From positions 1 to 59,811 of the forward strand of contig JACQBS010000026.1 of assembly GCA_016194325.1 (NCBI GenBank): a DNA stretch of 59,811 nt, written 5' to 3'. The notes below the pieces were generated by a model. That model was not told the DNA's origin. It was given only the letters and a program-made list of their open reading frames with translations, and made no database searches. This document shows, piece after piece, positions 22,312 to 46,371 of the stretch. Each line of letters opens with the position of its first letter. The first letter of the stretch is position 1. Position numbers and translations under genes: made by a program. Source of the DNA: Nitrospinota bacterium. Lineage in GTDB: Bacteria; Nitrospinota; Nitrospinia; UBA9942.

Positions 22312-23136
22312 ATGGAAGCTGATATTGAAAAACTTAAAAGCATTGCAAGACAGATAAGGATTGATATACTCACCATGCTGGTTGAGTCCGGCTCAGGGCA
22401 TACCGGAGGCTCTCTCTCTGCCACAGACATACTGACAGTCTTATATTTTTATAAGATGCGTTATGACCCAAAAAATCCTAAATGGGAGGATAGGGATAAA
22501 TTTGTCCTATCAAAAGGACATGGTGCACCAGCACTTTATGCAGTCCTCGGGAGGGCAGGTTATTTCGGTCTTGAACACTTTCATACATTGAGAAAGTTAG
22601 GGAGTATTTTAAGGGGGCATCCAAACAGTGCTGTAACACCCGGTATTGAGGTATGCACAGGCTCTCTTGGGCAGGGGTTATCACAGGCTAATGGATTGGC
22701 ACTTGCGGCAAGACTTGATAATAAGCCTGCAAGGATATATGTTGTGCTTGGAGATGGGGAGGTTGATGAAGGACAGGTCTGGGAGGCGGCAATGACTACA
22801 GCCCACTACAAGATAGATAATCTCTGTGCAATAATGGACAATAATGGCTTGCAGATAGATGGAACAAATAAAGAGGTCATGAATATTGACCCTGTTTCTG
22901 AAAAATGGAAGGCGTTTGGCTGGCATGTAATAGAAATAAATGGACATGATATTAAAGCAATTGTTGACGCCATTAATGAGGCAGAGAAAATCAAAGGGAA
23001 ACCTACAATGATTATTGCCCATACTGTAAAAGGTAAAGGTGTCTCCTTTATGGAAAATAAGGTGGAGTACCACGGTGTAGCTCCGACAAAAGATGAATAT
23101 GAGAGGGCGATGAAGGAACTGGGGGTAACCCATTAG
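22312..23136 (+). CDS. Transketolase, N-terminal (TPP-binding) subunit
   Basis: 'GSGHTGGSLS', 'LSKGH', 'TGSLGQG', 'GDGE', 'AHTVKGKGVSFMEN..EYHG'. Confidence 0.95.
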   Translation: MEADIEKLKSIARQIRIDILTMLVESGSGHTGGSLSATDILTVLYFYKMRYDPKNPKWEDRDKFVLSKGHGAPALYAVLGRAGYFGLEHFHTLRKLGSILRGHPNSAVTPGIEVCTGSLGQGLSQANGLALAARLDNKPARIYVVLGDGEVDEGQVWEAAMTTAHYKIDNLCAIMDNNGLQIDGTNKEVMNIDPVSEKWKAFGWHVIEINGHDIKAIVDAINEAEKIKGKPTMIIAHTVKGKGVSFMENKVEYHGVAPTKDEYERAMKELGVTH

Positions 23137-23266
23137 CCACGAATTGACACGAATAATCACGAAGAACAAAATAACAACTAAGACAGGATAAACAGGATTT
23201 TATTATCTTCTAATCTTAAGGTTTTAGAGTAATTTTTGGTGTTATTTCGTGTTCATTCGTGGCTAA
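23133..23266. repeat. CACGAAT-family inverted-repeat element between the transketolase halves
   Basis: TTAGCCACGAAT (23133) and ATTCGTGGCTAA (to 23266) form perfect 12-bp ends; internal ACAGGAT repeats. Confidence 0.85.
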
Positions 23267-23290
23267 ATAATTTATTGGAGGTAGATTCAA

Positions 23291-26121: not shown

Positions 26122-26814
26122 ATGAGCGGAATACTATACATAGTCTCAACACCAATAGGCAATTATGATGATATAACTCTACGGGCATTAAATATTCTTA
26201 AAATAGTTGATGAGGTAATATGTGAGGAATTTAAAGAAGGCAGAAGGCTCTTAAATCAATATGGAATTGACAAGTCCTTAAGAAGACTTAGTGAACATAA
26301 TGAAAAGAAGGATACGCCGCAGATTATAAAAGAGATAAAAGAGGGGAAAAATTTTGCCCTTATTACCGATTGTGGAACACCTGTCTTTGCTGATACAGGA
26401 AACTATCTTATAAAGGAGGCAATCTCAACAAACATAAAATTAGTCCCTGTTCCAGGTGCCTCATCAATCATGTCAGCACTTGTTACAGCAGGAATCCCTA
26501 TTGATAAGTTTAGCTATTACGGTTTTTTATCTCCCAAGAGTGATATACGGAAAAAGGAGCTTTTAAGTATTAAAAGAGAGATGCCTGTTATCCTTATGGA
26601 TACACCTTACAGGCTTCTTACCCTCTTAAAAGATATTATAGATATGTTGGGGAGGGAAACTTATATTATCCTGTGTATGGACCTCACAACTGATACTGAA
26701 GAAATCTTAAGAGGGAGGATAGATGAGGTATTGGAAAAAATAAAAGACAGGGAGAAGAAGAGAGAGTTTGTATTGATTATTAAGCCAAAAGAAAAAAGAC
26801 CTGAACACGAATAA
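26122..26814 (+). CDS. rsmI: 16S rRNA C1402 2'-O-methyltransferase RsmI (or close homolog)
   Basis: 'LYIVSTPIGNYDDITLRAL', 'DCGTPVFADTG', 'PGASS', 'YGFL'. Confidence 0.85.
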   Translation: MSGILYIVSTPIGNYDDITLRALNILKIVDEVICEEFKEGRRLLNQYGIDKSLRRLSEHNEKKDTPQIIKEIKEGKNFALITDCGTPVFADTGNYLIKEAISTNIKLVPVPGASSIMSALVTAGIPIDKFSYYGFLSPKSDIRKKELLSIKREMPVILMDTPYRLLTLLKDIIDMLGRETYIILCMDLTTDTEEILRGRIDEVLEKIKDREKKREFVLIIKPKEKRPEHE

Positions 26815-26903
26815 CACGAATGGACGAATTACACGAATAATTATATTATGGTTTTAATTTGCTTCTTATTAGTGCTATTTGTATATTCGTGTTATTCGTG
26901 TTC
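26803..26903. repeat. CACGAAT-family inverted-repeat element overlapping the rsmI stop codon
   Basis: GAACACGAATAACACGAAT ... ATTCGTGTTATTCGTGTTC. Confidence 0.85.
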
Positions 26904-26917
26904 CAGATTTTAATACC

Positions 26918-29143
26918 ATGAAAATTACAAATCAGGAAATATTAAAATTTATGCGGGAGTCTGTTTATCGTCCCCTTACAATGAAGGAATTGATAAAGAG
27001 TTTTAATATCCCTTCAGAGGAGAGAAGCTCCTTCAGGAGATTAATCAGGGGGCTGACAGGTGATGGAGAGATTATAAAGATAAAGGGAAATAGATTTGGA
27101 CTCCCCGAAAAGATGAATCTTGTTACAGGTGTTGTGCAGGGGCATCCTGACGGTTATGGATTTGTTATCCCTGAAGCCTGTAGTGACCCTGATCGGAGCG
27201 AAGGGGAATCTAACAGAGGAGAAGACCTATTTATAAATCCAAGAAATATGAGAGAGGTAATGCACGGTGATAAAGTTATCTGCAGGGCTGAACCAGCCCA
27301 AAAAGGCGGGAAGAGAGAGGGGAGGATTGTAAGAATATTAGAGAGAGGGCATAAGACATTAGTCGGTATATACGAGCCGAGTGGTCATTTTGGCTTTGTG
27401 ATACCTGATGACAGGAGGATAAGCCATGATATTTACATACCGCTTAAATATAGCGGAAAGGCTAAGATGGGGCATGCAGTCATAACAGAGATTACAGCCT
27501 ATCCAATGAAAAACAGAAACCCTGAAGGCAGGATAATAGAGATTATCGGTTATCCCGATAACCCCGATGTAGAGATAGATATTGTTCTGAGAAAATATGA
27601 TATACCCTCAAAATTTCCAATAGATGTTTTAAAAGAGGCAGATGCCGTTCAAAAAGAGGTTACAGATGATGAAATTATAGGAAGACTGGATTTAAGAGAT
27701 AAAAATATAGTTACCATAGACGGAGAAAAGGCAAAGGATTTTGATGATGCTGTAAATGTTGAGAGGCTTAATAATGGCAATTATATGTTAGGGGTCCATA
27801 TTGCCGATGTGAGTCATTATGTGAAAGAGGAAAATAACCTTGATAATGAGGCAGTTAAGAGGGGAACGAGTGTATATTTTCCTGACAGGGTAATCCCTAT
27901 GCTCCCCTTTCAACTCTCCAATGAGATATGCAGTCTAAAGCCAAATGTAGACAGGCTGACTCTGAGTGCATTTATGGAGTTTGACATGCAGGGAGAACTG
28001 ATAAATTATAGTTTTGCAGAGACAGTTATAAACAGCAAAGAGAGGATGACCTATACAGATGTGGCAGCAATACTGGAAGAGGGGCAAGGGGCAAGCCTGC
28101 CCCTGCAAGTAGTAAGCAGGGGGGGCAAGGGGCAAGGAGAAAATAAGGATTTAAAAGAAAGATATTCTTATCTCCTGAATGATTTTTATTTAATGAGGGA
28201 ATTGTGCGAGGTTTTGAGAGAAAGAAGAGTGAAAAAGGGGAGTATAGATTTTGACCTCCCTGAGCCTGATATAATCCTTGACCTGATGGGCAAACCTGAA
28301 AATATAATAAAGGCTGAAAGGAATATTGCCCATAAAATCATTGAGGAATTTATGCTCGTGGCGAATGAAACTGTAGCAACACACTTTACAAAACTTGAAA
28401 TACCTGCTCTTTACAGGGTGCATGATGAACCTGACCCGGCAAAAATAATAGAACTGAGTGAATTTGTATCAAATTTTGGTTATCATTTAAAAATAGATTC
28501 CCGCCTTCGCGGGAACAAGTTTCATCCAAAGAGATTTCAGGAACTGCTAAATAGTATCAGGGGGAAACCTGAAGAGCTGCTTATATCTACAATAACCTTA
28601 AGGCACATGAAACAGGCAAGGTATTCACCTGAAAATATCGGTCACTTTGGCCTTGCCTTTGAGAACTATACCCACTTTACATCTCCAATAAGGAGATACC
28701 CTGACTTAATCGTCCACAGACTCTTAAAAGAAATAATAAAAAAGAAACATATTCCAAAAAAGAGATTAGACTTATGGAAGGAGAAACTCCCTGAGATTGC
28801 CCGACACTCTTCAGAGAGAGAAAGGACGGCAGATGCGGCAGAAAATGATATTGTTGAATTAAAGAGGGTCCAGTTCATGGTGGATAAGATTGGTGAAGAG
28901 TATGAAGGGATTATATCAGGCGTAACCTCTTTTGGATTGTTTGTGGAACTGGAGGAGATATTTGTTGAAGGGCTTATCCATGTATCGGGTATGGCTGATG
29001 ATTACTATGCCTTAAATGAGAGAGACCATTCACTGACAGGAAGACGGACAAAGAAAAGATTCAAGATGGGAGATAGGGTAAAGGTAAAGATTGAAAATGT
29101 CAGTCTGGCAAAAAAACAGATTGATTTTAAATTGATTAAATGA
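26918..29143 (+). CDS. rnr: Ribonuclease R
   Basis: HTH plus cold-shock domains, RNB 'TIDGEKAKDFDDA', 'HFTSPIRRYPDL', C-terminal S1; start moved to ATG 26918. Confidence 0.97.
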   Translation: MKITNQEILKFMRESVYRPLTMKELIKSFNIPSEERSSFRRLIRGLTGDGEIIKIKGNRFGLPEKMNLVTGVVQGHPDGYGFVIPEACSDPDRSEGESNRGEDLFINPRNMREVMHGDKVICRAEPAQKGGKREGRIVRILERGHKTLVGIYEPSGHFGFVIPDDRRISHDIYIPLKYSGKAKMGHAVITEITAYPMKNRNPEGRIIEIIGYPDNPDVEIDIVLRKYDIPSKFPIDVLKEADAVQKEVTDDEIIGRLDLRDKNIVTIDGEKAKDFDDAVNVERLNNGNYMLGVHIADVSHYVKEENNLDNEAVKRGTSVYFPDRVIPMLPFQLSNEICSLKPNVDRLTLSAFMEFDMQGELINYSFAETVINSKERMTYTDVAAILEEGQGASLPLQVVSRGGKGQGENKDLKERYSYLLNDFYLMRELCEVLRERRVKKGSIDFDLPEPDIILDLMGKPENIIKAERNIAHKIIEEFMLVANETVATHFTKLEIPALYRVHDEPDPAKIIELSEFVSNFGYHLKIDSRLRGNKFHPKRFQELLNSIRGKPEELLISTITLRHMKQARYSPENIGHFGLAFENYTHFTSPIRRYPDLIVHRLLKEIIKKKHIPKKRLDLWKEKLPEIARHSSERERTADAAENDIVELKRVQFMVDKIGEEYEGIISGVTSFGLFVELEEIFVEGLIHVSGMADDYYALNERDHSLTGRRTKKRFKMGDRVKVKIENVSLAKKQIDFKLIK

Positions 29144-31022: not shown

Positions 31023-31045
31023 CTATTAACCTCCAAAAAAAAATC

Positions 31046-31119
31046 AGCCACGAATGAATACGAATTAACACTAAATTATATGGTAAATCATCGTATCTGA
31101 TTCGTGTAAATTCGTGGCT
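31046..31119. repeat. CACGAAT-family inverted-repeat element
   Basis: AGCCACGAAT ... ATTCGTGGCT, perfect 10-bp ends. Confidence 0.85.
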
Positions 31120-31138
31120 AATAAGTTTCTGTTTTGAC

Positions 31139-32434
31139 TTATAATGCTACATCAAACCCGACTGTAATCTTACTCCCATCTATACTCTTCTGTTCACCGC
31201 CGACGGTGTATTTGTCTTTATATTTATTATCCTGAAAATCCCACAGGGATTTAAAAGTTATCCGTGCATTCTGGGTGACATACCATGCGCCCTCAACTGC
31301 AAAATCAGCGTTTTTATTTGAATCTGTCCCGCCATCTTTTTCTGTGAGTGTCTCATAAATTGCACCGAATTGAAAAGATTCACTAAGGCGTAAAAGCCCC
31401 TCCATCATAAAACCGGTTGATTCCCTTTTTGTCCCGATTCCTGTTGATGAAACATCGCTCTGGGATACGGTGTCATAAAGAAAATCTAAGTCAAATCTCT
31501 GTGATGAATACCTGATACCCGCCACCCATTCTCCCACATCATTCCTGTATTTTCTATTACCTGTTGTCCCTCCAAATCCCTGAGGATTGGCGAAGTATCT
31601 GACAGAGGCAGCAACTGCCCCAAAATCCCCCCTCAACATCCCTGTATAGGCGGTGTTTGGGTCATTATCATTATCGGCACTTCCGCCATTACCCTGATTT
31701 ACGGCGAGCTCATAGGTAAAATAACCAAACCCGGGACGTCCGTAAAGACTAATTCCAAGGTCATTACTGCCTGCCCTGCCTGTATTGTATCCTGAGCTTG
31801 CCGAAGGATTGTTTCCGCTGCTCCAGTTCATAGGCATCGGGATAAGAGACTTGCCGCTTATAACCCGCCTTGTGCTGTGGACAGCATCAAGGTCAGAACT
31901 CATAAGCGAGCCAAATCTGATATTAAAATTACCAGGGCCCCATATATTATGAAAACCTAAAAACATTGAGTCGGTTATGCGGCCTGTAATCTTATCCTGC
32001 GATGACCCTTGAGGAAGTTCAAACCAGTAAGAAACATTTTTTGTAAGTGTCCCCCCTCCAATAATATTGCCAGCCATTTCACCGGATGAGAGCAGCCCCC
32101 CCGCCTGTTCATTCTCACCAGCAGTTGTATGTGTTGTCCTGCTTAAATAGGTTCTGCCCTCTAATCTCAGGCTAAACGGCGGGAATGTAGCAGGGTTATC
32201 CAATGGTAGGTCTTCGGCAATCTTTATCTTGCCTGCCTCTCCCCCGCTTTCTGTATCAGGCAGTTGATAGCCATTGAGCATATAATTAAATCCAAACTCA
32301 TTCAGCCTTGGCCAAGTGGAATGGCAGAGCATACAGGCGATCTCATGTTTTCTAGCAAACCCCGGTTGCGCATCTGCAGGTTTATATGCCACCGCAATAA
32401 ATGATATACCGATGAAAATAATTAATAAAAGCAT
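31139..32434 (-). CDS. Cyc2-like fused monoheme cytochrome c / outer-membrane beta-barrel
   Basis: Signal peptide, then 'PGFARKHEIACMLCHSTWPRLNEFG...NGY' (single CxxCH) and alternating beta-strand patterns. Start is uncertain (32434 or 32491) because repeats overlap it. Confidence 0.7.
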   Translation of the reverse strand: MLLLIIFIGISFIAVAYKPADAQPGFARKHEIACMLCHSTWPRLNEFGFNYMLNGYQLPDTESGGEAGKIKIAEDLPLDNPATFPPFSLRLEGRTYLSRTTHTTAGENEQAGGLLSSGEMAGNIIGGGTLTKNVSYWFELPQGSSQDKITGRITDSMFLGFHNIWGPGNFNIRFGSLMSSDLDAVHSTRRVISGKSLIPMPMNWSSGNNPSASSGYNTGRAGSNDLGISLYGRPGFGYFTYELAVNQGNGGSADNDNDPNTAYTGMLRGDFGAVAASVRYFANPQGFGGTTGNRKYRNDVGEWVAGIRYSSQRFDLDFLYDTVSQSDVSSTGIGTKRESTGFMMEGLLRLSESFQFGAIYETLTEKDGGTDSNKNADFAVEGAWYVTQNARITFKSLWDFQDNKYKDKYTVGGEQKSIDGSKITVGFDVAL

Positions 32435-32491
32435 CCTGAGCTTGTCGAAGGATGCATGGTTCGACTTTTCGACAAGCTCAAAGCTCACCAT
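32432..32491. repeat. CCTGAGCTTGTCGAAGG / TTCGACAAGCTCA-family hairpin repeats
   Basis: CATCCTGAGCTTGTCGAAGGATG followed by TGGTTCGACTTTTCGACAAGCTCAAAGCTCACCAT. Confidence 0.8.
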
Positions 32492-32513
32492 GCTTGCCTT
32501 CGGGCTTACCACT

Positions 32514-32792
32514 TTACTTTCTCGACTTTGAGTATTCAATCAATTTCTCCCATTCGCCATTAATTAAAGCCTCTTTCTTCTTTCTTGTCCATCCTTTTAT
32601 TTGCCTTTCCCTGAGAAATGCGTCATGAATTGTTGGCATTTCACAATAATAAACCAATTTTACAGGCAATCTCTTTGCTGTATAGCCATCAAACATTTTA
32701 GTGTTATGTTCAGCTAATCGTTTTTCTAAATTTTTAGCAGAGCCAGTATAGTATGACCCGTCAGCACATTTCAATATGTATAACCATGTCAT
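32514..32792 (-). CDS. GIY-YIG nuclease (YhbQ/UPF0213-like)
   Basis: 'WLYILKCADGSYYTGS...RLAEHN...YT..RLPVKLVY...RERQIKGWTRKKKEALI'; start moved to ATG 32792. Confidence 0.92.
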   Translation of the reverse strand: MTWLYILKCADGSYYTGSAKNLEKRLAEHNTKMFDGYTAKRLPVKLVYYCEMPTIHDAFLRERQIKGWTRKKKEALINGEWEKLIEYSKSRK

Positions 32793-32800
32793 TATTATTG

Positions 32801-32823
32801 CATCCTGAGCTTGTCGAAGGATC
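32801..32823. repeat. CCTGAGCTTGTCGAAGG-family repeat upstream of the GIY-YIG gene
   Basis: CATCCTGAGCTTGTCGAAGGATC, matching the copy at 32432. Confidence 0.8.
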
Positions 32824-33685
32824 ACTCCTTCTCCATATTCATCTCAAGTTCTGTTTTTTGTCCTTTCCTTATAGATACCTTTTCCTTTTTCTCCTTAAAG
32901 CTCTCAAGCTTTACAGTTACATCATATATACCTGATTCAATATCAACACTCAGCGGCGATAGTCCAAAGTATATGTCGCCAATATATATCTTGGAGCGGG
33001 GAGGCTCTGTCTTTATGGAAATTCTCCCTGCCCCTTCAGGAATTGGTGTTTCTTCTGCAGATGCAGTCCCTGCCTTTCCAAAATTTTTATTTATCTCTAT
33101 AATTGTTTTATTAATAACCTTTGCAAGTGTCTTTGAGATATATGAATTGATTGTCTTCTTGGAATTACCAGAGACCCCTGCAAACCTATCTTCTTTTTCT
33201 GTTATTACACCCTCCCATATGCCCTTCCCTGTTTTACCTGATATTAACCTGCTTTCAATCTCAATTTCTATTTCGTCTCTTCCCTTTATATCAAGCCTGA
33301 ATTTTTTTATCTCCCCGCTCATTATTATATCCGCCTGACCTCCCCCCTCTCCTCCTTCTAAAGGAGGGGATGAAGGGATGGTAACAATAAAACCGGCAGA
33401 AGTTAGATGTGTCTTAATAGCTTCATTAACAGATATAGCAACATCCTTTTCCAAAATAATTTTATCGGCATGCATATCAGTAACAGTTGACTCAATTTTT
33501 CCAACATAGTTTGGGGCGACATCTCCCCTTGAATCAATATATGGTTTAAGGATGATGGTTAGGGGTTTAGTGGCTTTTGATGTATCAGGGATTTGTCCGG
33601 GCTTATAGTTAAGCTTAACCGCCCCTGAACAGCCTGTTATAAATAGGAATAGTAAGAAAGGAAGGGAATAGCGGGTTATTGTCAT
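32822..33685 (-). CDS. Lipoprotein with a C-terminal PEGA domain
   Basis: Lipobox 'ITGC'; C-terminal 'ISIKTEPPRSKIYIGDIYFGLSPL...GIYDVTVKLESF' PEGA pattern. Confidence 0.8.
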   Translation of the reverse strand: MTITRYSLPFLLFLFITGCSGAVKLNYKPGQIPDTSKATKPLTIILKPYIDSRGDVAPNYVGKIESTVTDMHADKIILEKDVAISVNEAIKTHLTSAGFIVTIPSSPPLEGGEGGGQADIIMSGEIKKFRLDIKGRDEIEIEIESRLISGKTGKGIWEGVITEKEDRFAGVSGNSKKTINSYISKTLAKVINKTIIEINKNFGKAGTASAEETPIPEGAGRISIKTEPPRSKIYIGDIYFGLSPLSVDIESGIYDVTVKLESFKEKKEKVSIRKGQKTELEMNMEKE

Positions 33686-34059
33686 TTTATCTTCTCAATA
33701 AATGATCCTGCTGATTTAAGGGCTGCCTTTACCATATCTACATCCTCTAACAATCCTCTATAGTATCCAGCTATATGCAATTCCTTATAGAGGGCTTCAA
33801 AATTTCTAATAATCTTGCCGTTATGAACCGACAGATGTTTCTTTAGCATCTCTCTGTAACCATCTATGGATTTAGGTAATTTTTTTTCACCTACTCCTCG
33901 TTTTATGAGATATTCATCTATGGCTATCAACACAGAAAGATAGGCAGTAGAACAAGCCTCACGGACAAACTTAATATCTCTGTACCTATTCTCCTCAATT
34001 CCTGACTTACTCAGGATTTCTTTTGCATTTTCCAAATATCTTAAAGCCTCTTTTGACAT
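33682..34059 (-). CDS. DUF5618-like (HEPN-fold) small protein
   Basis: 'EALRYLENAKEIL...TAYLSVLIAIDEYL...LHIAGYYRG'; clear paralog of 35686-36090. Confidence 0.7.
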   Translation of the reverse strand: MSKEALRYLENAKEILSKSGIEENRYRDIKFVREACSTAYLSVLIAIDEYLIKRGVGEKKLPKSIDGYREMLKKHLSVHNGKIIRNFEALYKELHIAGYYRGLLEDVDMVKAALKSAGSFIEKIK

Positions 34060-34094
34060 AGTCAAATAATACACCAGATTTTTACTTTTTCAAA

Positions 34095-34135
34095 ATAAAA
34101 AAAGGGGAGGGTTTTAAACCCTCCCCTTTTTATTT
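34095..34135. terminator. Rho-independent terminator downstream of cyc2
   Basis: AAAAAAAGGGGAGGG-TTTTAAA-CCCTCCCCTTTTT: GC stem with T-runs on both strands. Confidence 0.85.
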
Positions 34136-34149
34136 GCTTCACCATTAAG

Positions 34150-34185
34150 CATGGTGAGCTTTGAGCTTATCTAAAAGTCAAACCA
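34150..34185. repeat. Degenerate TGGTTCGAC...AAGCTCACCATG repeat copy
   Basis: CATGGTGAGCTTTGAGCTTATCTAAAAGTCAAACCA is the reverse complement of the 32457-32492 copy with a few mismatches. Confidence 0.75.
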
Positions 34186-35409
34186 TTAGAATGCGGAGAA
34201 GACCATCAGTGTTGTTTTCTGGTCAGAACCATATGCTGTCTTCTGGTTTACATCGCCGCTCATTGTTGCATAATCTAACTGCACCTTAACATTCTGGGCT
34301 ATCTTATATATAAGGGCAATATCCATGCGGTTTTCACCGGCACTGGATGCAGCTCCATTTTTACCCATAAGATAACTCAATGCTACAGATGCCTTGTTCG
34401 GAATAATACCAAGATTTGCAGCTATAGATGTTGCATTTTTGTCTGCACCAGATGCTGCGATGGCATATGTCTTACCATCGGTCCCTGCCTTAGGTACTGT
34501 CGCATAGGTCAGATAGACTCCCAGAGGCATACCACCAATCTCACCTTGTGCCTGTGCATCAATGGCAGTTCCCTGAACTACATAAGTTGCAGAAGTTGCT
34601 TCACCCAATTTTGTCTCACCGCCCCAATACTGAACACCTATTGCTGTATCAAAGCCGCCAAGATTAGGTGTTACTGCTGCACGGATATACTGTGCGAGAT
34701 TGAGACCCGAAGAAATCGCATCGGAATGACTTGGACCCCATAGTGAGGCATTTACAAAGAACATATCACTGGCGCCATAGAGAACAATACCTGTGGCTGC
34801 AGTACCGCTAAGACCCGTATACTGCTGTGCTGAGGTATCTATACCTTCACCAATAGGTTTATGTATCTTTATTGCACCTGTGTTTAAAACCTCAAACCCA
34901 TAGCCCGCTCCCTGATCTGCTGTTGTAAAAGCACCTGCTGCCAGAGTGGTCCCGCCCATATCAAATGGGAATATTAATTTAAAATTATCAAAACCTCCAG
35001 TCTCCTTTAAGCCTCTCTCAAGTAAAAATCCAACATGCTCTCCACCACGACCCCCAGCCATTAATGATGCCTCATCAGGAACCTGTATTTGACCCCTGTC
35101 TGTCCCGGCCTTAGTATCACCATTTGTCTGCTGGTACCTTGCTTTAACTATAAGAGACATATTAAGGACATTTGGAATTGATAAGTCATCATCCTTAATC
35201 TGGCCCTGCTCGCCAATCTGTGTATAACCGCTTGCCTTAAATGCCCTGCCAAAAGAATTTAAGCTTGGAAAAGCCTGGAAATGGCATGTATTACAGGCAT
35301 GACCTGTCTGCCTTGAAAATGCTGGAATTGCCTGTGCATCCTGCGTAATTATAAATGAACCTACGAAGGATAAGGCTACTGCTAATGTTATTACTAATAT
35401 CTTCTTCAT
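34186..35409 (-). CDS. cyc2: Cyc2 cytochrome-porin fusion, Cluster 1-like (putative outer-membrane Fe(II) oxidase)
   Basis: Signal peptide ending AQA; 'IPAFSRQTGHACNTCHFQAFPSLNSFGRAFKASGY'; 'PDEASLMAGGRGGEHVGFLLE'; beta-barrel ending in Phe. Confidence 0.85.
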   Translation of the reverse strand: MKKILVITLAVALSFVGSFIITQDAQAIPAFSRQTGHACNTCHFQAFPSLNSFGRAFKASGYTQIGEQGQIKDDDLSIPNVLNMSLIVKARYQQTNGDTKAGTDRGQIQVPDEASLMAGGRGGEHVGFLLERGLKETGGFDNFKLIFPFDMGGTTLAAGAFTTADQGAGYGFEVLNTGAIKIHKPIGEGIDTSAQQYTGLSGTAATGIVLYGASDMFFVNASLWGPSHSDAISSGLNLAQYIRAAVTPNLGGFDTAIGVQYWGGETKLGEATSATYVVQGTAIDAQAQGEIGGMPLGVYLTYATVPKAGTDGKTYAIAASGADKNATSIAANLGIIPNKASVALSYLMGKNGAASSAGENRMDIALIYKIAQNVKVQLDYATMSGDVNQKTAYGSDQKTTLMVFSAF

Positions 35410-35531
35410 CTTTTACCTCCTCAAATTTAAAAACTAAAAAAATATAAACTCCATTACTTATGTGTAAAATCCTAAAAACCTACTTACCACCACCTCCTTT
35501 CTTATTTAAAAATTTACTGTGTACTTAATTT

Positions 35532-35631
35532 AGATTCTTCCCCTTCCCCTTCACTTTGTTCAGGGTCAGGGTCAGAATGACACTTCTGCTATTGCTTGTC
35601 ATTCTGAAGGAGCAAAGCGACTGAAGAATCT
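35532..35631. repeat. GTCATTCTG...GAAGAATCT-family palindromic element with a nested CCCTTCACTTTGTTCAGGG unit
   Basis: Ends AGATTCTTC/GAAGAATCT; inner CAGAATGAC/GTCATTCTG. Confidence 0.75.
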
Positions 35632-35685
35632 CAACATTAAATTATGTGAATAAATATCATACCCTCTTTACTTTGTCAAGGTTTT

Positions 35686-36090
35686 TTAATGTTCAATCTT
35701 CTCAATAAATATCCTTGCAGCTTTTATGGCATCTTTCACCATATCTACATTATAGATAAGCCCTCTATAATATCCTGCTATATGCAGGGTATCATAAAGC
35801 ATTTCAAATTCTCTCATAAGTTTTCCATTGCGAATTGCCAGATGCCTTTTCAATGCCTCTCTATAGGCATCTACCGATCCTTCGGCTTCGCTCAGGACAG
35901 GTTTAGGAAGTTCTTTTTTTATTAAGCCATGTTTAGTAATAAGGTACTCGTTTATTGCTTCTAAAATAGCAAGATAGGCTGTCCCAAAAGCCTCTCTTAC
36001 TGGCTTTACATCTGTATAGACATTTTCCTCTATAGGGATTTTTTTGAGTATCTCCTTTGCATTGTTTAAATATCTAATAGATTCCCTCAT
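35686..36090 (-). CDS. DUF5618-like small protein (second paralog, with an 8-aa repeat-derived insert)
   Basis: 'ESIRYLNNAKEIL...LHIAGYYRG'; carries PVLSEAEG, which the 33682 paralog lacks. Confidence 0.7.
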   Translation of the reverse strand: MRESIRYLNNAKEILKKIPIEENVYTDVKPVREAFGTAYLAILEAINEYLITKHGLIKKELPKPVLSEAEGSVDAYREALKRHLAIRNGKLMREFEMLYDTLHIAGYYRGLIYNVDMVKDAIKAARIFIEKIEH

Positions 36091-36187: not shown

Positions 36188-36267
36188 AACCACAGATTCA
36201 CACAGATTAACACGAATTTAAAAAGAAAAAAGTTTTTATCTGTGTTCATCCGTGTTTATCTGTGGTT
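36188..36267. repeat. CACAGAT-family inverted-repeat element
   Basis: AACCACAGAT ... ATCTGTGGTT, perfect 10-bp ends. Confidence 0.85.
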
Positions 36268-38132: not shown

Positions 38133-40103
38133 ATGAATGAACTTCCATTATTAAGAGATATAATCATTATCCTTGCCTTTACCCTTCCGATTACTTTCAT
38201 ATTCCATAAATTAAAACTGCCTGCCATTATCGGTTACCTCCTTACAGGAATGGTTATTGGTCCCTATGGTATCAGGCTGATATATGAACTCAGCATGGTG
38301 AAGATATTGGCAGAGATCGGAGTTGCACTTTTATTGTTCACTGTAGGGCTTGAATTCTCTCTGACCCGTATGGCAAGAAATATTAAGACCATTGTCGGCA
38401 GCGGCGGGATTCAGGTCGTCCTGACAATTATCGGCACATTTATTATTTTTCATATCTCAGGCTACACCCTCCAGCAATCGCTCTTTTTTGGTTTTCTTGT
38501 CTCACTAAGCAGCACTGCAATTGTCCTCAAGATGTATACTGACAGGGGGGAAATTGATTCTCCTCACGGAAAATTTTCTGTAGGCATCCTCCTATTTCAG
38601 GACCTCTGTGTTGTCCCGATGATATTGCTGATTCCGATTCTTGGAAGCGGGGAGGGCGCCTCACTACAGATTATTATTACAGCAATTCTCAAGGCAGTAA
38701 TAGCAGTGGTGTTTATATTCTTTGCATCCCGTATCTTAGTGCCAAAACTGCTTCATCATATAGTCAGGCTGAAGAACCGTGAATCCCTCATCCTTTTTAT
38801 TATCCTTATTTGTCTTGGCACTGCATGGATTACACAGTATTTTGGCTTATCCCTCGCTATGGGTGCATTCATTGCAGGGTTGATTATATCCGAATCGGAA
38901 TACAGCAGTCAGGTTGTTGTTGATATATTGCCATTCCGGGATTTCTTCAGCAGTATCTTTTTTATCTCCATCGGGATGCTTTTTAAAATATATCATCTAA
39001 TCGAAAATCCAATATATTTACTATTTTTAACTGCATCTCTTATTGTGTTAAAGGCGATTCCTGCATTTCTTTCTGTCGTAATATTCCAGAAATCCCCCCG
39101 TATAGCATTTATATCCGCCCTGAGACTTGCCCAGATTGGTGAGTTTTCTTTTTTGTTGGCAGGAGAGGGGCTGTCACTGCAATTAATCGGGAATGATGAT
39201 TTTCAGACTTTTCTCATTACTGCAATCCTTACAATGATGGCGGCACCATTTTTAATTCAGGTATCCTATGGATTATCCCTTAAACTGCAGTCCCTTTTCT
39301 CAACCTCTGAGAAAAAGTGGGACGAGGGGGAAGGGGAAAAATTAAATGACCATGTCATCATTGCCGGTTACGGATTAAACGGAAAGAATCTCACTCAAGT
39401 TTTAAAGGAGACACGAATTCACTTTACTGTTATTGAAATGAATCCAGAGAGAATAGAAGCGGGAAAATCGGCAGGAATTCCAATAATGTATGGCGATATA
39501 ACAAGTAAAGAGATTCTCCATAAGGCAGGAATTGAACGGGCAAAGATTATTGTCTTTGCTATCTCAGACCTGCTGTCAGTCCGCAGGGGCATTGATATAG
39601 CCCGTCAGATGAATCCCAATATCCACATTATTGCCCGGACACTGTATGCATCAGAGGTAGAAGAATTGAACAGCCTTGGGGCGAATCAGGTCATTCCTAT
39701 GGATTTTGAAACTTCTGTGGAAATATTTTCACGGGTCTTGAAAGAGTATCACATACCAGGAAATATTATTAATCAATATGTGAGCATGATTAGAATGGAT
39801 GGCTACGGTATGCTCAGAGGACTCTCCATATCTCAGGAGAGACTTAAAGACCTTTATAGCTATTTATTAATGAGTACAATAGAAAGCTATCTGGTAATTG
39901 AAGGTTCAGTAGCAAATAAAAAGAGTTTAAAAGAGCTTGATTTGCGGCATAACACAGGGGCAGTTATTATTGCTCTTGTCAGGAAAGGAGATGCTAAGAT
40001 AAACCCCGACCCCGAATTAAAGATTGAGGCAGGAGACATTTTAATCTTGCTGGGGAGCCATGCACAGTTAGACAAGGCACTAAATTTATTGAGCCACGAA
40101 TAA
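38133..40103 (+). CDS. CPA2-family cation:proton antiporter (KefB/KefC-like) with TrkA-N and TrkA-C domains
   Basis: 'AEIGVALLLFTVGLEFS', 'LSSTAIV', 'QIGEFSF', 'IIAGYG', C-terminal RCK-C. Confidence 0.92.
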   Translation: MNELPLLRDIIIILAFTLPITFIFHKLKLPAIIGYLLTGMVIGPYGIRLIYELSMVKILAEIGVALLLFTVGLEFSLTRMARNIKTIVGSGGIQVVLTIIGTFIIFHISGYTLQQSLFFGFLVSLSSTAIVLKMYTDRGEIDSPHGKFSVGILLFQDLCVVPMILLIPILGSGEGASLQIIITAILKAVIAVVFIFFASRILVPKLLHHIVRLKNRESLILFIILICLGTAWITQYFGLSLAMGAFIAGLIISESEYSSQVVVDILPFRDFFSSIFFISIGMLFKIYHLIENPIYLLFLTASLIVLKAIPAFLSVVIFQKSPRIAFISALRLAQIGEFSFLLAGEGLSLQLIGNDDFQTFLITAILTMMAAPFLIQVSYGLSLKLQSLFSTSEKKWDEGEGEKLNDHVIIAGYGLNGKNLTQVLKETRIHFTVIEMNPERIEAGKSAGIPIMYGDITSKEILHKAGIERAKIIVFAISDLLSVRRGIDIARQMNPNIHIIARTLYASEVEELNSLGANQVIPMDFETSVEIFSRVLKEYHIPGNIINQYVSMIRMDGYGMLRGLSISQERLKDLYSYLLMSTIESYLVIEGSVANKKSLKELDLRHNTGAVIIALVRKGDAKINPDPELKIEAGDILILLGSHAQLDKALNLLSHE

Positions 40104-40190
40104 ACACGAATTTGCACTAATAAATAAAATTAAAAATTTAACTTTTTGATTTTTCTTTTCATTCGTGTTCATTCGTGTAAATTCGTGGCT
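40092..40190. repeat. CACGAAT-family inverted-repeat element overlapping the antiporter stop codon
   Basis: AGCCACGAAT ... ATTCGTGGCT. Confidence 0.85.
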
Positions 40191-40200
40191 AAGTGGTTTT

Positions 40201-42705
40201 ATGAAAAAACCAGTTATCCCAATCCTTCTATTCTACATTGCCGGTATTTTATACGGCAGATACCTCCCCATGCATCTCATTCATCTAACTGTATTTATAA
40301 TCTTTACATTATTGGTAGCCGCAACCCTTCACTTTGTTCAGGGCAAGCTCTTAAGGTTGCGTTTTCTTACGCAGGCTAAAGCCTGCGGCTACCTTATTCT
40401 CCTTCCTACTCTCTCCATTCTCGCAGGTGCTGTTGCCATAAACTATCAGTCCCTAACACTCCCCGATAATCATCTATCTCACCTTCTATCAGATAAAAAA
40501 GTGTCTATTGAGGGCATCATTTATAAACCGCCTGAGGTTCTGGAAAACAAGACAAGACTATATTTAGATGTGGAAAAGCTGTCTGGCAGAGATACTAATG
40601 GAAAAGTAAAAATAACACTATATAGAGACACCACCGATGCTAACTATAAAGACAGGGTCAGAATAAAAGATGTAAAGTTACATATCCCAAGGAATTTCAA
40701 AAATCCCGGCGGATTTGATTACAAGAGATTCATGGAGGACCAGGGCATTTATGTAATTGGAAGTATCAGTAAGGGGAATCAGATAGAGGTATTAGATAAA
40801 GATAAGGGGTGCATACTTTCATATATATATAAATCAAAAGAAAGGTTGTCACTTTTCATAGAGAAAAACGCCCCTCCCGAAGAGTCATCAATATTAAAGA
40901 CAATGGTCTTTGGTGAGAGGAGTGCAATCTCAAAAGAGATGAGGAATATATTCAGTTCTACAGGTATTGCCCACCTCCTGGCAGTATCAGGCTTGCATGT
41001 AGGGTTTGTAGCCTTTGCCGCCTTTTTAATATTCAAAAAGTTTTTCTCATTCTTGTTTTTACGCTTCTACCACAGACTCTTTTTAATTGGTGCAGTTCAG
41101 AGATTTGCGGCATTTTTCACCATGTTTCCTGTTTTATATTATTCAATATTAGTCGGTGCAAGTCCTTCAACAGTGAGGGCAGCAATAATGGCAATTGTAT
41201 ATCTATTGTCTATTGTCCTGTATAGAGAGGGGGACATATACAATACCCTATCCCTTGCCGCACTTATTATTCTGATATGGCATCCACCTTCCCTCTTTAA
41301 TATAGGCTTCCAGTTGTCATTTATCGCAGTTCTATCCATAGCTTATGGATTTACAATCCTGAATCAAGTTCAGGGTCAGGACAGCTTTAAGCCTTCACCC
41401 CTTAGTCCTTCGGTAGCCGCAGGCTTCAGCCTGCGTGAGTTTTTTCTAAGACACCGATGGCTGTATAACTATACCTTTTCATCTATATTTGCAACACTTG
41501 GAACTCTGCCAATAATCGCATATCATTTTAATCTTGTATCAATTATTGGGCCTATTGTAAATATACTTGCAATCCCTCTTGCATCTCTTATAGTCCCCCT
41601 TACACTCATTTTTTCACTATTGTCAAATATAAATGAACAGATTGCCTCTCTTCTAATAAATATACCTGTCTTTCTAACATTTATTTTGGTTAAGATAGCG
41701 AAATTTTTCACAAATATTCCTTATTACTCAATTAGGGTTCAGACCCCCTCTTTATTAACTATATTTATGATTTACCCTCTGCTCGTTGGGATATTAAACT
41801 TCAAACGACACAGGTGGATAAAAATAGGAACTATTTCAATATGCTTATTTTTAGTAATTTCTTCTGGATTCAGAATTCTATCTCATCACTCATCACTCAT
41901 CACTCATCACTTTTTGAGGGTTACCTTCATTGATGTAGGGCAGGCTGAATGCTCATTGATTCAATTCCCAAATGGAAAGACCCTGCTTATAGATGGAGGG
42001 AGATTGATGGATGATTTTGATGCGGGCGGAAGCATAGTAGCCCCTTATCTCTGGGATAAGGGTATTACAAAGATTGATTATGTTGTTGGTTCTCATCCAG
42101 ACAGTGACCATGTGGGCGGGCTATTGTTTATATTAAACGAAATGTCTGTTAAAAATTATTTTGATAATGGACAGGAATCAACTGATTTAATCCATGTAAA
42201 ACTGCGTGAGATTGCCAGAGAGAAAAATATTCTATACAGAGTTTTGGGGACAGGCGATAAAATAGAAGTTGATGAAAGGGTTAAGGTGGAGATATTACAC
42301 CCACCCAAAGGAAGTTCCAAGTTAGAAAAGAAAGGACACGATAACAACCTATCTATAGTCATGAAGATTACCTATGGCAATTTTTCTATTCTCTTTACAG
42401 GTGATATAGAAAAGGAGGCGGAGGAATTTTTAATTAGACAACAAAGTGAGGAGCTTAAAGCTAAAATTTTGAAAGTTCCTCATCACGGTAGTAGTTCTTC
42501 AAGCTCAGAAGAATTTATAAAAAAAGTAAGTCCAGAGGCTGCAACTTTTTCTGTTGGGTATAATAATCCTTTCAGACATCCCAATAAAAAAGTTTTAGCA
42601 AGATACAGAGATGCAGGGGCTAAAATATACAGGACAGATAGGGAGGGGTTGATAGAGATAGAATCAGATGGAAAAGGTTACACTGTAAAAACACATGATT
42701 TTTAA
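40201..42705 (+). CDS. comEC: DNA internalization competence protein ComEC/Rec2
   Basis: DUF4131/OB region, 'AHLLAVSGLHVG', 'GFQLSF', beta-lactamase fold 'DVGQ...HPDSDHVGG...PHHGS'; start ATG 40201. Confidence 0.93.
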   Translation: MKKPVIPILLFYIAGILYGRYLPMHLIHLTVFIIFTLLVAATLHFVQGKLLRLRFLTQAKACGYLILLPTLSILAGAVAINYQSLTLPDNHLSHLLSDKKVSIEGIIYKPPEVLENKTRLYLDVEKLSGRDTNGKVKITLYRDTTDANYKDRVRIKDVKLHIPRNFKNPGGFDYKRFMEDQGIYVIGSISKGNQIEVLDKDKGCILSYIYKSKERLSLFIEKNAPPEESSILKTMVFGERSAISKEMRNIFSSTGIAHLLAVSGLHVGFVAFAAFLIFKKFFSFLFLRFYHRLFLIGAVQRFAAFFTMFPVLYYSILVGASPSTVRAAIMAIVYLLSIVLYREGDIYNTLSLAALIILIWHPPSLFNIGFQLSFIAVLSIAYGFTILNQVQGQDSFKPSPLSPSVAAGFSLREFFLRHRWLYNYTFSSIFATLGTLPIIAYHFNLVSIIGPIVNILAIPLASLIVPLTLIFSLLSNINEQIASLLINIPVFLTFILVKIAKFFTNIPYYSIRVQTPSLLTIFMIYPLLVGILNFKRHRWIKIGTISICLFLVISSGFRILSHHSSLITHHFLRVTFIDVGQAECSLIQFPNGKTLLIDGGRLMDDFDAGGSIVAPYLWDKGITKIDYVVGSHPDSDHVGGLLFILNEMSVKNYFDNGQESTDLIHVKLREIAREKNILYRVLGTGDKIEVDERVKVEILHPPKGSSKLEKKGHDNNLSIVMKITYGNFSILFTGDIEKEAEEFLIRQQSEELKAKILKVPHHGSSSSSSEEFIKKVSPEAATFSVGYNNPFRHPNKKVLARYRDAGAKIYRTDREGLIEIESDGKGYTVKTHDF

Positions 42706-46012: not shown

Positions 46013-46371
46013 TGGTGGAGGTGGCGGGAATCGAACCCGCGTCCGAAAATGCTCAACTGAAAGCATACTACATGCTTATCCTCTGTTTTAAAGTCTCGTT
46101 GCTCTCAACTCCCTGAGGCAGGATTCTTGAGCAACCAGCCTGATTAGTCTCGCCCCACACCCTCAGACATGATGTGCAGCCAGCCTGTATTTATAACATC
46201 CTTTTTCCATCCTACAGACAAAGACAGAGAGGATGCCGGCTGTTAATTAAGCAGCCAGTGCATATTCATAAGTGTTTGCACTTATGAGTTTCCATCAGGA
46301 TTTACGAGGTCAATGGATCCCTCGGCATGCAGCTTTAGTATCACTATTCCCGTCGAGACCAGGTCACCCCC
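46013..46371 (-). ncRNA. ssrA: tmRNA
   Basis: 5' GGGGGTGACCTGGTCTCGACGGG; 3' GGACGCGGGTTCGATTCCCGCCACCTCCACCA; tag ORF 46279-46247 encodes (A)ANTYEYALAA*. Confidence 0.95.

Follow-up and report, generated by a model that had tools for sequence, protein, structure and literature searches.

The stretch of DNA analysed here (the window, a 59,811-nt contig of a Nitrospinota bacterium, handled as C60 of assembly G000, which comprises 3.12 Mb in 175 contigs with 39% G+C) holds a promoter-less cassette of ~390 bp (32432-32822), in which a stand-alone UPF0213-like GIY-YIG nuclease gene is enclosed by copies of its cognate hairpin unit. The cassette has been inserted between two genes of an operon and is absent at the orthologous site in relatives, the nuclease clade and its hairpin travel together across phyla, and the hairpin unit itself is mobile: many genes, as well as apical loops of further palindromes, contain it as an insertion of 15-36 nt that mostly keeps the reading frame. 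These observations are best explained overall, in our moderately confident view, by an inserted nuclease-hairpin cassette whose units are mobile, and more tentatively by a nuclease cut that would trigger their spread. The cassette and its surroundings comprise the following features.

32514-32792, minus strand: GIY-YIG nuclease gene of 92 aa (ATG 32790-32792, TAA 32514-32516, open reading frame (ORF) 32517-32792).
32801-32822, plus strand: hairpin unit directly upstream of the nuclease gene and antisense to it, an exact 22-mer.
32456-32495, minus strand: composite unit downstream of the nuclease gene with a CATGG...CCATG stem, its core TGAGCTTGTCGAA lying at 32467-32481 on the minus strand.
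32432-32453, plus strand: outer hairpin unit, an exact 22-mer with a 7-bp stem (flanks included) and an 11-nt apical loop.
34147-34186, plus strand: second composite unit of the CATGG type, inverted relative to 32456-32495 (40 nt, 93% complementary).
32822-33685, minus strand: PEGA-domain lipoprotein gene (Pfam PEGA; G002 ortholog 95% identical), the left boundary of the insertion site.
31139-32436, minus strand: Cyc2-like gene (synteny by tblastn in G002 and G007), the right boundary of the insertion site.

The 22-mer CATCCTGAGCTTGTCGAAGGAT was found in exact form at 32432-32453 and 32801-32822, on both sides of the nuclease gene as the first-pass annotation of this DNA had reported, with a third copy carrying 2 mismatches at 31788-31809, and it had 0 matches in 100 dinucleotide-preserving shuffles. 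The same annotation had described the gene as bracketed by copies of this sequence, which in the window are direct; the general layout in the family is instead one of inverted units, and the second direct 22-mer lies outside the inverted pair formed by the 32801 unit and the 32467-32481 core. The composite unit at 32456-32495 and the upstream unit are inverted partners, and the proposed kinship of the former with the second composite unit (given earlier as 32457-32491 and 34150-34185) was confirmed by the same loop and the same CATGG/CCATG stem in inverted copies. The upstream unit shares its last base with the PEGA stop codon TGA (the T), folds weakly on its own (-1.6 kcal/mol) and contains an AGGA motif 10 nt before the nuclease ATG. 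The outer unit reached -6.1 kcal/mol as single-stranded DNA (ssDNA; z -2.9), and the composite core together with this adjacent unit formed a 13-bp pairing of -14.6 kcal/mol (z -3.1, ssDNA fold). The terminal CAT of the outer unit is, in reverse complement, the ATG of the downstream Cyc2-like gene, and an upstream in-frame ATG within the composite unit (~32488-32490) could, judging from the sequence, be a start of that gene as well. Promoter-like and terminator-like sites in the cassette did not exceed chance; the cassette lies between two same-strand genes and is therefore probably co-transcribed with the PEGA lipoprotein and Cyc2-like genes.

The association between nuclease and hairpin was assessed at the loci of the best 80 relatives by protein (46-62% identity), 79 ORFs being scored for flanking units. 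These relatives belong to at least 10 phyla and include Nitrospirales, Ignavibacteria, Cloacimonadales, Zixibacteria, Bacteroidota, Chlorobi, Dependentiae, Parcubacteria, Chloroflexota and Proteobacteria. A unit was present within 150 nt of the ORF in 61 of the 79 cases (77%), and on both sides in 36 (46%). The unit density was 6.0/kb near the ORF, 0.30/kb in the remaining flanks (up to 3 kb) and 0.04/kb in shuffles, which corresponds to a 20-fold local enrichment over the remaining flanks. The commonest layout was a plus-strand unit, the ORF and a minus-strand unit (20/79). Median distances were 34 nt from the end of the upstream unit to the start codon and 23.5 nt from the stop codon to the beginning of the downstream unit.

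Moreover, the pairing is specific to each clade. Besides two larger UvrC-like GIY-YIG matches, G000 has a further small GIY-YIG gene on each of the contigs C17, C66 and C121, with 36-42% identity to the window protein. When the repeats of the three clades represented by the window protein (P0001) and by the C17 and C121 paralogs were scored around the relatives of each, the P0001 clade gave rates of 74%, 0 and 0, the C17 clade 0, 92% and 1%, and the C121 clade 0, 0 and 26% for the P0001, C17 and C121 repeats, respectively, so that a foreign-clade repeat never exceeded 1%. The C17-type relatives carried TGTCATTGCGAG...CGAAGCAATCT arms (the 92% just given), and the C121-type relatives CCCCNCACC / GGTGNGGGG arms. 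This strictly diagonal table bears directly on coincidence, according to which any small intergenic gene would be found flanked in a genome saturated with short palindromic repeats. Such saturation is real, with ~116 GTCATTGCGAG-type and ~88 GTCATTCTGAG-type copies in G000 in addition to heptamer palindromes; it does not account for the diagonal table, for a 20-fold enrichment at 79 independent loci of other phyla or for a 22-mer never matched in the shuffles, and chance flanking was ruled out on these three grounds, leaving it a negligible probability.

On C17 (2248-2620; L002) and C66 (2981-3351; L003) of G000, a small GIY-YIG gene lies inside its own inverted arms, GTCATTGCGAG...GAAGCAATCT and GTCATGCYGAACTTGTTTCRGCATCTC, with ~116 and ~14 copies of the respective arm motif in G000, and members of the C17 clade usually have a downstream arm that begins at the stop codon (TGAgattgc). 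On contig C121, an RNase P RNA gene (class A, 308 bits; L001:1172-1812, plus strand) is 641 nt long, and its helix at model position 136/137 (P12) bears in the terminal loop a same-strand GIY-YIG ORF of 85 aa, which a 20-nt inverted repeat closes. The arrangement recurs at L308:566-1206 (G002) and L093:598-1250 (another metagenome-assembled genome). The relatives of the C121 ORF, mostly from Patescibacteria and with CCCCCACACC-type arms, had the RNase P CR-I motif upstream in only 2 of 79 cases (L093 and L116), Rfam confirming L093 only, and a literature search for a GIY-YIG gene in bacterial RNase P RNA gave organelle papers only.

The insertion was delimited by comparison with G002, of the same genus as G000, and with G007, of the same family. 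In G007 the PEGA stop codon and the Cyc2 ATG are separated by only 27 nt, with neither cassette nor hairpin, and in G002 the gap (L090:5240-5720, orthologous to 32436-32822) is occupied by a YefM/YoeB-like toxin-antitoxin pair and is likewise free of hairpins. Homology among G000, G002 and G007 stops right after ...GGAGAAGGAGT. At one border, the inserted unit contributes the GA of the PEGA stop codon (T/GA); at the other, the outer unit provides the Cyc2-like ATG, and the original first codons, seen in G002 and G007, are missing in G000. The start of the Cyc2-like gene is thus rebuilt by hairpin units. A further junction of this kind was noticed in the Cyc2a-PEGA interval, where G002 has a different small gene in place of the DUF5618a of G000, and such junctions in the operon resemble places where small selfish genes settle.

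The empty site also bears on a homing-type origin, in which a selfish ORF would encode a nuclease that cuts pre-existing hairpins or cruciforms, repair would copy the ORF into their loops, and the hairpin would be target, not cargo. All four small GIY-YIG genes of G000 are found between inverted arms, one of them in the tip of RNase P RNA helix P12, units land in the apical loops of other palindromes, and Slx1, a structural neighbour of the window protein, is a structure-specific nuclease, all of which would fit such an ORF. The site in G007, however, is empty of hairpin too, and therefore the ORF came together with its arms; moreover, each clade retains its own sequence-specific arms and not just any hairpin. 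A homing ORF is accordingly an improbable source of the cassette.

The hairpin was defined from 186 distinct units, collected at 80 loci in other phyla. Its loop, TGAGC-(YT or GGA)-G-Y-CGAA, is invariant and 13-14 nt long, and the three base pairs beside it were Watson-Crick in 88-93% of units, against 33-65% with shuffled partners; CG, GC, AT and TA pairs were all present, which reveals covariation of the stem. A TGTCA tag occurred on the 5' side only (113/186 units). In addition to single units, ORF-less doublets were observed in which a plus-strand unit is followed after ~16 nt by a minus-strand unit, that is, the unit-ORF-unit architecture minus the gene. The possibility that the stems derive from the target sequence by inverted target duplication was rejected, because subfamilies keep one and the same stem at different sites. 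The unit sequence was not found in a literature search.

The mobility of the unit was demonstrated by filled and empty sites. G000 contains 76 exact units ([CG]TGAGC-N2-3-G[TC]CGAA[GC]), compared with 0 in the shuffled genome, and 60 of the 76 lie within long open frames (150 aa or more), the figure for random positions being 81%, which indicates that genes are not avoided. In fact, the unit is open in five of its six reading frames and is read as LSLSKG/LSKVEG, PEPVEG, VRQAHD or GSTGS. Comparison with the same-genus G001, G002 and G003 revealed clean indels of 15, 18, 21, 24 or 36 nt, exactly at the unit, at 14 sites of G000 outside the window; at one of these, two units occupy the apical loop of a CGCAGAT palindrome, the loop of the G002 ortholog being plain. 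Approximately 10 of the 15 assessable unit sites are private to G000. Within the window, the in-frame copies that had been pointed out earlier in RNase R, DUF5618 and ComEC each proved to be a clean insertion relative to same-genus genomes, and the Cyc2-like gene adds a fourth.

31788-31812, plus strand: 24-nt in-frame unit in the Cyc2-like porin-cytochrome gene, absent in G002.
35878-35901, minus strand: 24-nt in-frame unit (PVLSEAEG) in DUF5618 paralog b, absent in the G002 ortholog and in paralog a.
27177-27212, plus strand: 36-nt in-frame insertion in RNase R, a decayed unit (GTGACCC-TGATCGGAGCGAA-GGGG) present in G000 and G002 and absent in G001 and G003.
40326-40349, plus strand: 24-nt in-frame sister unit (CCCTTCACTTTGTTCAGGG) in ComEC, absent in the G002 ortholog.

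At the Cyc2-like site, G002 reads GGAA/ACAGTACAGG and G000 reads GGAA/ACAATCCTTCGGCAAGCTCAGGAT/ACAATACAGG; in the RNase R insertion of G002, the loop has the canonical TGAGC.

Other repeats in and around the window were recorded as well. The segment at 35532-35631, previously listed with the units of the cassette, is indeed related, although it belongs to another subfamily: 35540-35631, between Cyc2a and DUF5618b, holds a head-to-head GTCATTCTGA-type doublet and one CCCTTCACTTTGTTCAGGG unit (-13.2 kcal/mol as ssDNA). Heptamer palindromes of the CACGAAT/CACAGAT type lie between genes at 143-309, 23127-23273, 26792-26911, 31036-31128, 36188-36267 and 40081-40201, and elsewhere in G000 heptamer elements of the GACAGGAT, CGCAGAT and CAGAAG types carry hairpin units in their apical loops. 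Inside RNase R, 28078-28138 is a GGGGCAAG-repeat segment in a stretch from which G001 and G003 lack 33 nt; this repeat occurs in dozens of near-identical copies in the same-family G004 and G007. A tmRNA gene was identified at 46013-46371 on the minus strand (Rfam RF00023, 207 bits).

Concerning the enzyme, the 92-aa ORF matched the Pfam GIY-YIG domain (PF01541) with E=1.7e-17 over residues 2-73, and no specific NCBIfam model was found for it. Y5, D11, Y15, G17, R25, H29, P43 and E62 were invariant in the clade alignment, including the catalytic set (Y5, Y15, R25, H29, E62), and the clade also conserves a basic patch, K66-G-W68-x-R70-x-K72-K73. The AlphaFold (AF2) model presented a GIY-YIG fold (pLDDT 93.2, pTM 0.81), for which the nearest PDB chains by Foldseek were the UPF0213 proteins BH0048 and EF2693, followed by Slx1; the first two were also matched by sequence (1ZG2, 8e-11, and 1YWL, 2.6e-9). 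These UPF0213 proteins are therefore the closest solved relatives of the window protein both by sequence and by fold. UPF0213 proteins, of which the stand-alone type forms a large family, have to our knowledge no assigned function and no assigned DNA partner. In the tree, the window clade joined UPF0213 across a branch with 94% support, the internal support for the UPF0213 placement being low.

The position of the window protein relative to the Ssn nucleases (cd10448), GIY-YIG enzymes of 94 aa encoded between NTS/SRM hairpins (Chenal et al. 2025, Nat Commun 16:2388, PMC11893778), was approached by proxy. SsnA was not among the PDB chains in the sequence and structure searches, and a GIY-YIG gene was adjacent in only 2 of 120 NTS-bearing loci; the proteins of these two (L426 and L427) served as its stand-in in the tree and clustered with the C17 clade with 99% bootstrap, a grouping that is moderately firm given the short sequences. 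As far as these proxy sequences indicate, and with the same moderate firmness, the window protein appears to fall outside the SsnA/cd10448 clade.

By analogy with the Ssn enzymes, the window nuclease probably uses the loop and the 5' tag to bind its hairpin, folded in ssDNA, and cleaves beside it. The resulting nicks or breaks might then be repaired by host functions from other copies, thereby spreading the cassette as well as ORF-less units and doublets, and the nuclease would have the role of a trigger and not that of a strand-transferring transposase. That host processing of the cut spreads cassette and units is put forward only tentatively. In a still wider and rather doubtful extension, UPF0213-type stand-alone GIY-YIG proteins might be the partner enzymes of a second cross-phylum nuclease-hairpin class, with an autonomous ~390-bp cassette and hairpin cutting in ssDNA that would drive host-repair copying of 15-24-nt units.

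Whether repeat load follows the presence of the nuclease clade was a test proposed in the first-pass annotation, and the association was observed to be positive but leaky. Within the genus, G000 has 76 units, G002 38, G001 6 and G003 7, and only G000 carries the clade ortholog. In a 120-genome set of the phylum, the median number of CTGAGC-N2-3-GTCGAAG copies was 29 in genomes with the clade ortholog (n=11), 12 in those with another small GIY-YIG match (n=23) and 1 otherwise (n=85). Copy number was associated with the ortholog (Mann-Whitney p=7e-5; Spearman rho=0.34), and the mean was higher with the ortholog in 6/6 mixed genera (sign test p=0.016), phylogeny being corrected only coarsely in these statistics.

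This coarse correction is one of several points that weigh against a mobilising nuclease. No GIY-YIG match at E<=1e-10 was obtained in 14 of the 29 repeat-rich genomes (those with at least 20 units), and the clade ortholog is present in only 7; for example, G062, which is 96% complete, harbours 140 units with a best GIY-YIG match of just 1e-5. The nuclease-free G001, G002 and G003 show a few private insertions even so (assemblies 73-83% complete). No consistent target-site duplication was found at the window sites, with imperfect 5-7-nt repeats in two cases only. In the units of G000, TTGCA or AAGCA replaces the canonical TGTCA tag, and the window clade stands apart from the NTS-flanked Ssn proteins in the tree. 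Finally, GIY-YIG enzymes hydrolyse DNA with no covalent intermediate and do not complete transposition alone. Such a hydrolase cannot rejoin DNA, and therefore mobilisation must rely on repair or replication. Consequently, of the RAYT-like pairing proposed in the first-pass annotation, in which a GIY-YIG enzyme would mobilise the repeats, the clade-hairpin pairing and the mobility of the unit stand, whereas the nuclease as mobiliser is plausible and unproven.

In G062 (L315, L318, L320, L322 and others) the units are mostly convergent doublets, with a plus-strand unit, ~16 nt and a minus-strand unit, often nested in a second palindrome, CTTTGCATAAG...CTTATGCAAAG. Comparison with its nuclease-free congener G061 yielded one informative site, where ~92 nt with the unit are missing in G061, the intergenic DNA being otherwise too diverged.

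The persistence of high unit copy number without the nuclease is what an alternative would predict in which the nuclease spreads nothing. The enzyme would then be a host or selfish factor using hairpins as recognition marks (e.g., in restricting incoming ssDNA like SsnA in Neisseria transformation, or in defence or repair), the hairpins would multiply by host processes (e.g., template switching or gene conversion at replication forks), and the expression or retention of the gene would depend on them. The one biological role demonstrated so far for an Ssn nuclease is of this kind, namely the modulation (limiting) of natural transformation in N. meningitidis (PMC11893778), and ComEC and other competence genes are encoded in the window. 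This alternative nevertheless leaves unexplained a hairpin-ended cassette at a site that is empty in relatives, the patchy spread of the clade over at least 10 phyla at 46-62% identity, and the largest private unit burst of the genus in its nuclease-bearing species; we consider it rather unlikely, and the inserted cassette with its cognate, mobile hairpin remains our preferred explanation.

Some consequences follow from the filled and empty sites themselves. Within a genus, a hairpin of ~20 nt remodels RNase R, ComEC and porin-cytochromes and rebuilds gene starts and stops on a speciation time scale, which is relevant to the annotation of metagenome-derived genomes and to the tolerance of selfish DNA in coding sequence. 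If the pairing is functional, it would supply a DNA partner for a so far function-less UPF0213-like GIY-YIG clade, widen the Ssn principle of 2025 to a second enzyme clade in which recognition involves a conserved loop and a free stem, and enlarge the proposed toolbox of programmable ssDNA cutters by candidate pairs of enzyme and site. If the mobility model is true, the 15-24-nt units, which lie in frame in essential genes, would rank with the smallest mobile units known, and the mechanism of their mobility would belong to no recognised transposase class. The question of who moves the repeats, first raised for REP/RAYT, can be put to the test here on an enzyme of 92 aa and a substrate of 22 nt.

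Several known systems share parts of this organization. As in REP/RAYT, a single-copy enzyme gene is flanked by the hairpins that it presumably serves, ORF-less singlets and inverted doublets occur, and repeat load correlates imperfectly with enzyme presence. RAYT, however, is an HUH Y1 enzyme with a covalent tyrosine intermediate, whereas the window enzyme is a GIY-YIG hydrolase and the cassette has no HUH gene; likewise, REPs are extragenic, whereas window-type units occur as readily in coding sequence as in other DNA. Insertion sequences and miniature inverted-repeat transposable elements are marked by terminal inverted repeats, target-site duplication and a recognised transposase; in the present family inverted units are the commonest layout and filled and empty sites were observed, no consistent duplication was found, and the cassette has no known transposase fold. 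The Rickettsia palindromic elements (RPE), which Ogata et al. are said to have described in 2000, are reportedly ~100-150 bp of palindromic selfish DNA inserted in frame in protein genes; they are similar in that in-frame palindromic inserts are tolerated as extra peptide segments, but have no established partner enzyme, whereas the window-type inserts measure 15-36 nt and have a candidate one. Among enzymes, Slx1 differs from the stand-alone window protein in that it depends on Slx4 and on a RING domain; its substrate is branched DNA.

The Ssn nucleases are the closest parallel. They bind the hairpin and cut ssDNA upstream of it, double-stranded DNA and RNA not being cut, and the gene is present in 81% of genomes with more than 200 SRMs (PMC11893778). 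Both systems comprise a single-domain GIY-YIG enzyme of ~90-95 aa with its gene bracketed by its own dispersed hairpin, and the directional 5' GTCA tag is the only element of the SRM that recurs in the window-clade hairpin. The flanking rates are also alike, at least one repeat lying near 71% of Ssn homologs and repeats on both sides of 42% (PMC11893778), against 77% and 46% in the window clade. The differences are equally clear. The window clade groups with UPF0213, and not with NTS-flanked or C17-type proteins; its hairpin has a variable 3-bp stem and a conserved loop of 13-14 nt, whereas the SRM has a GC-rich stem of 7-8 bp and a 4-nt loop. The SRM consensus HGTCWYN(0-2)YYVSBRHN(0-5)WNVSBRGN(0-2)RNCYNB had 0 matches in the window and matched 0/79 clade loci, the NTS positive control being matched. 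Furthermore, window-type units frequently occupy long open frames (60/76), whereas only 2% of NTS lie inside genes (PMC11893778). The NTS-ssnA-NTS arrangement was itself likened to an insertion sequence and to REP/RAYT in the discussion of that study (PMC11893778), and because it covers them, the RAYT-like idea of the first-pass annotation and the tests proposed with it were already published in principle. The pairing principle therefore dates from 2025, and the enzyme clade and hairpin of the window fall outside its published description.

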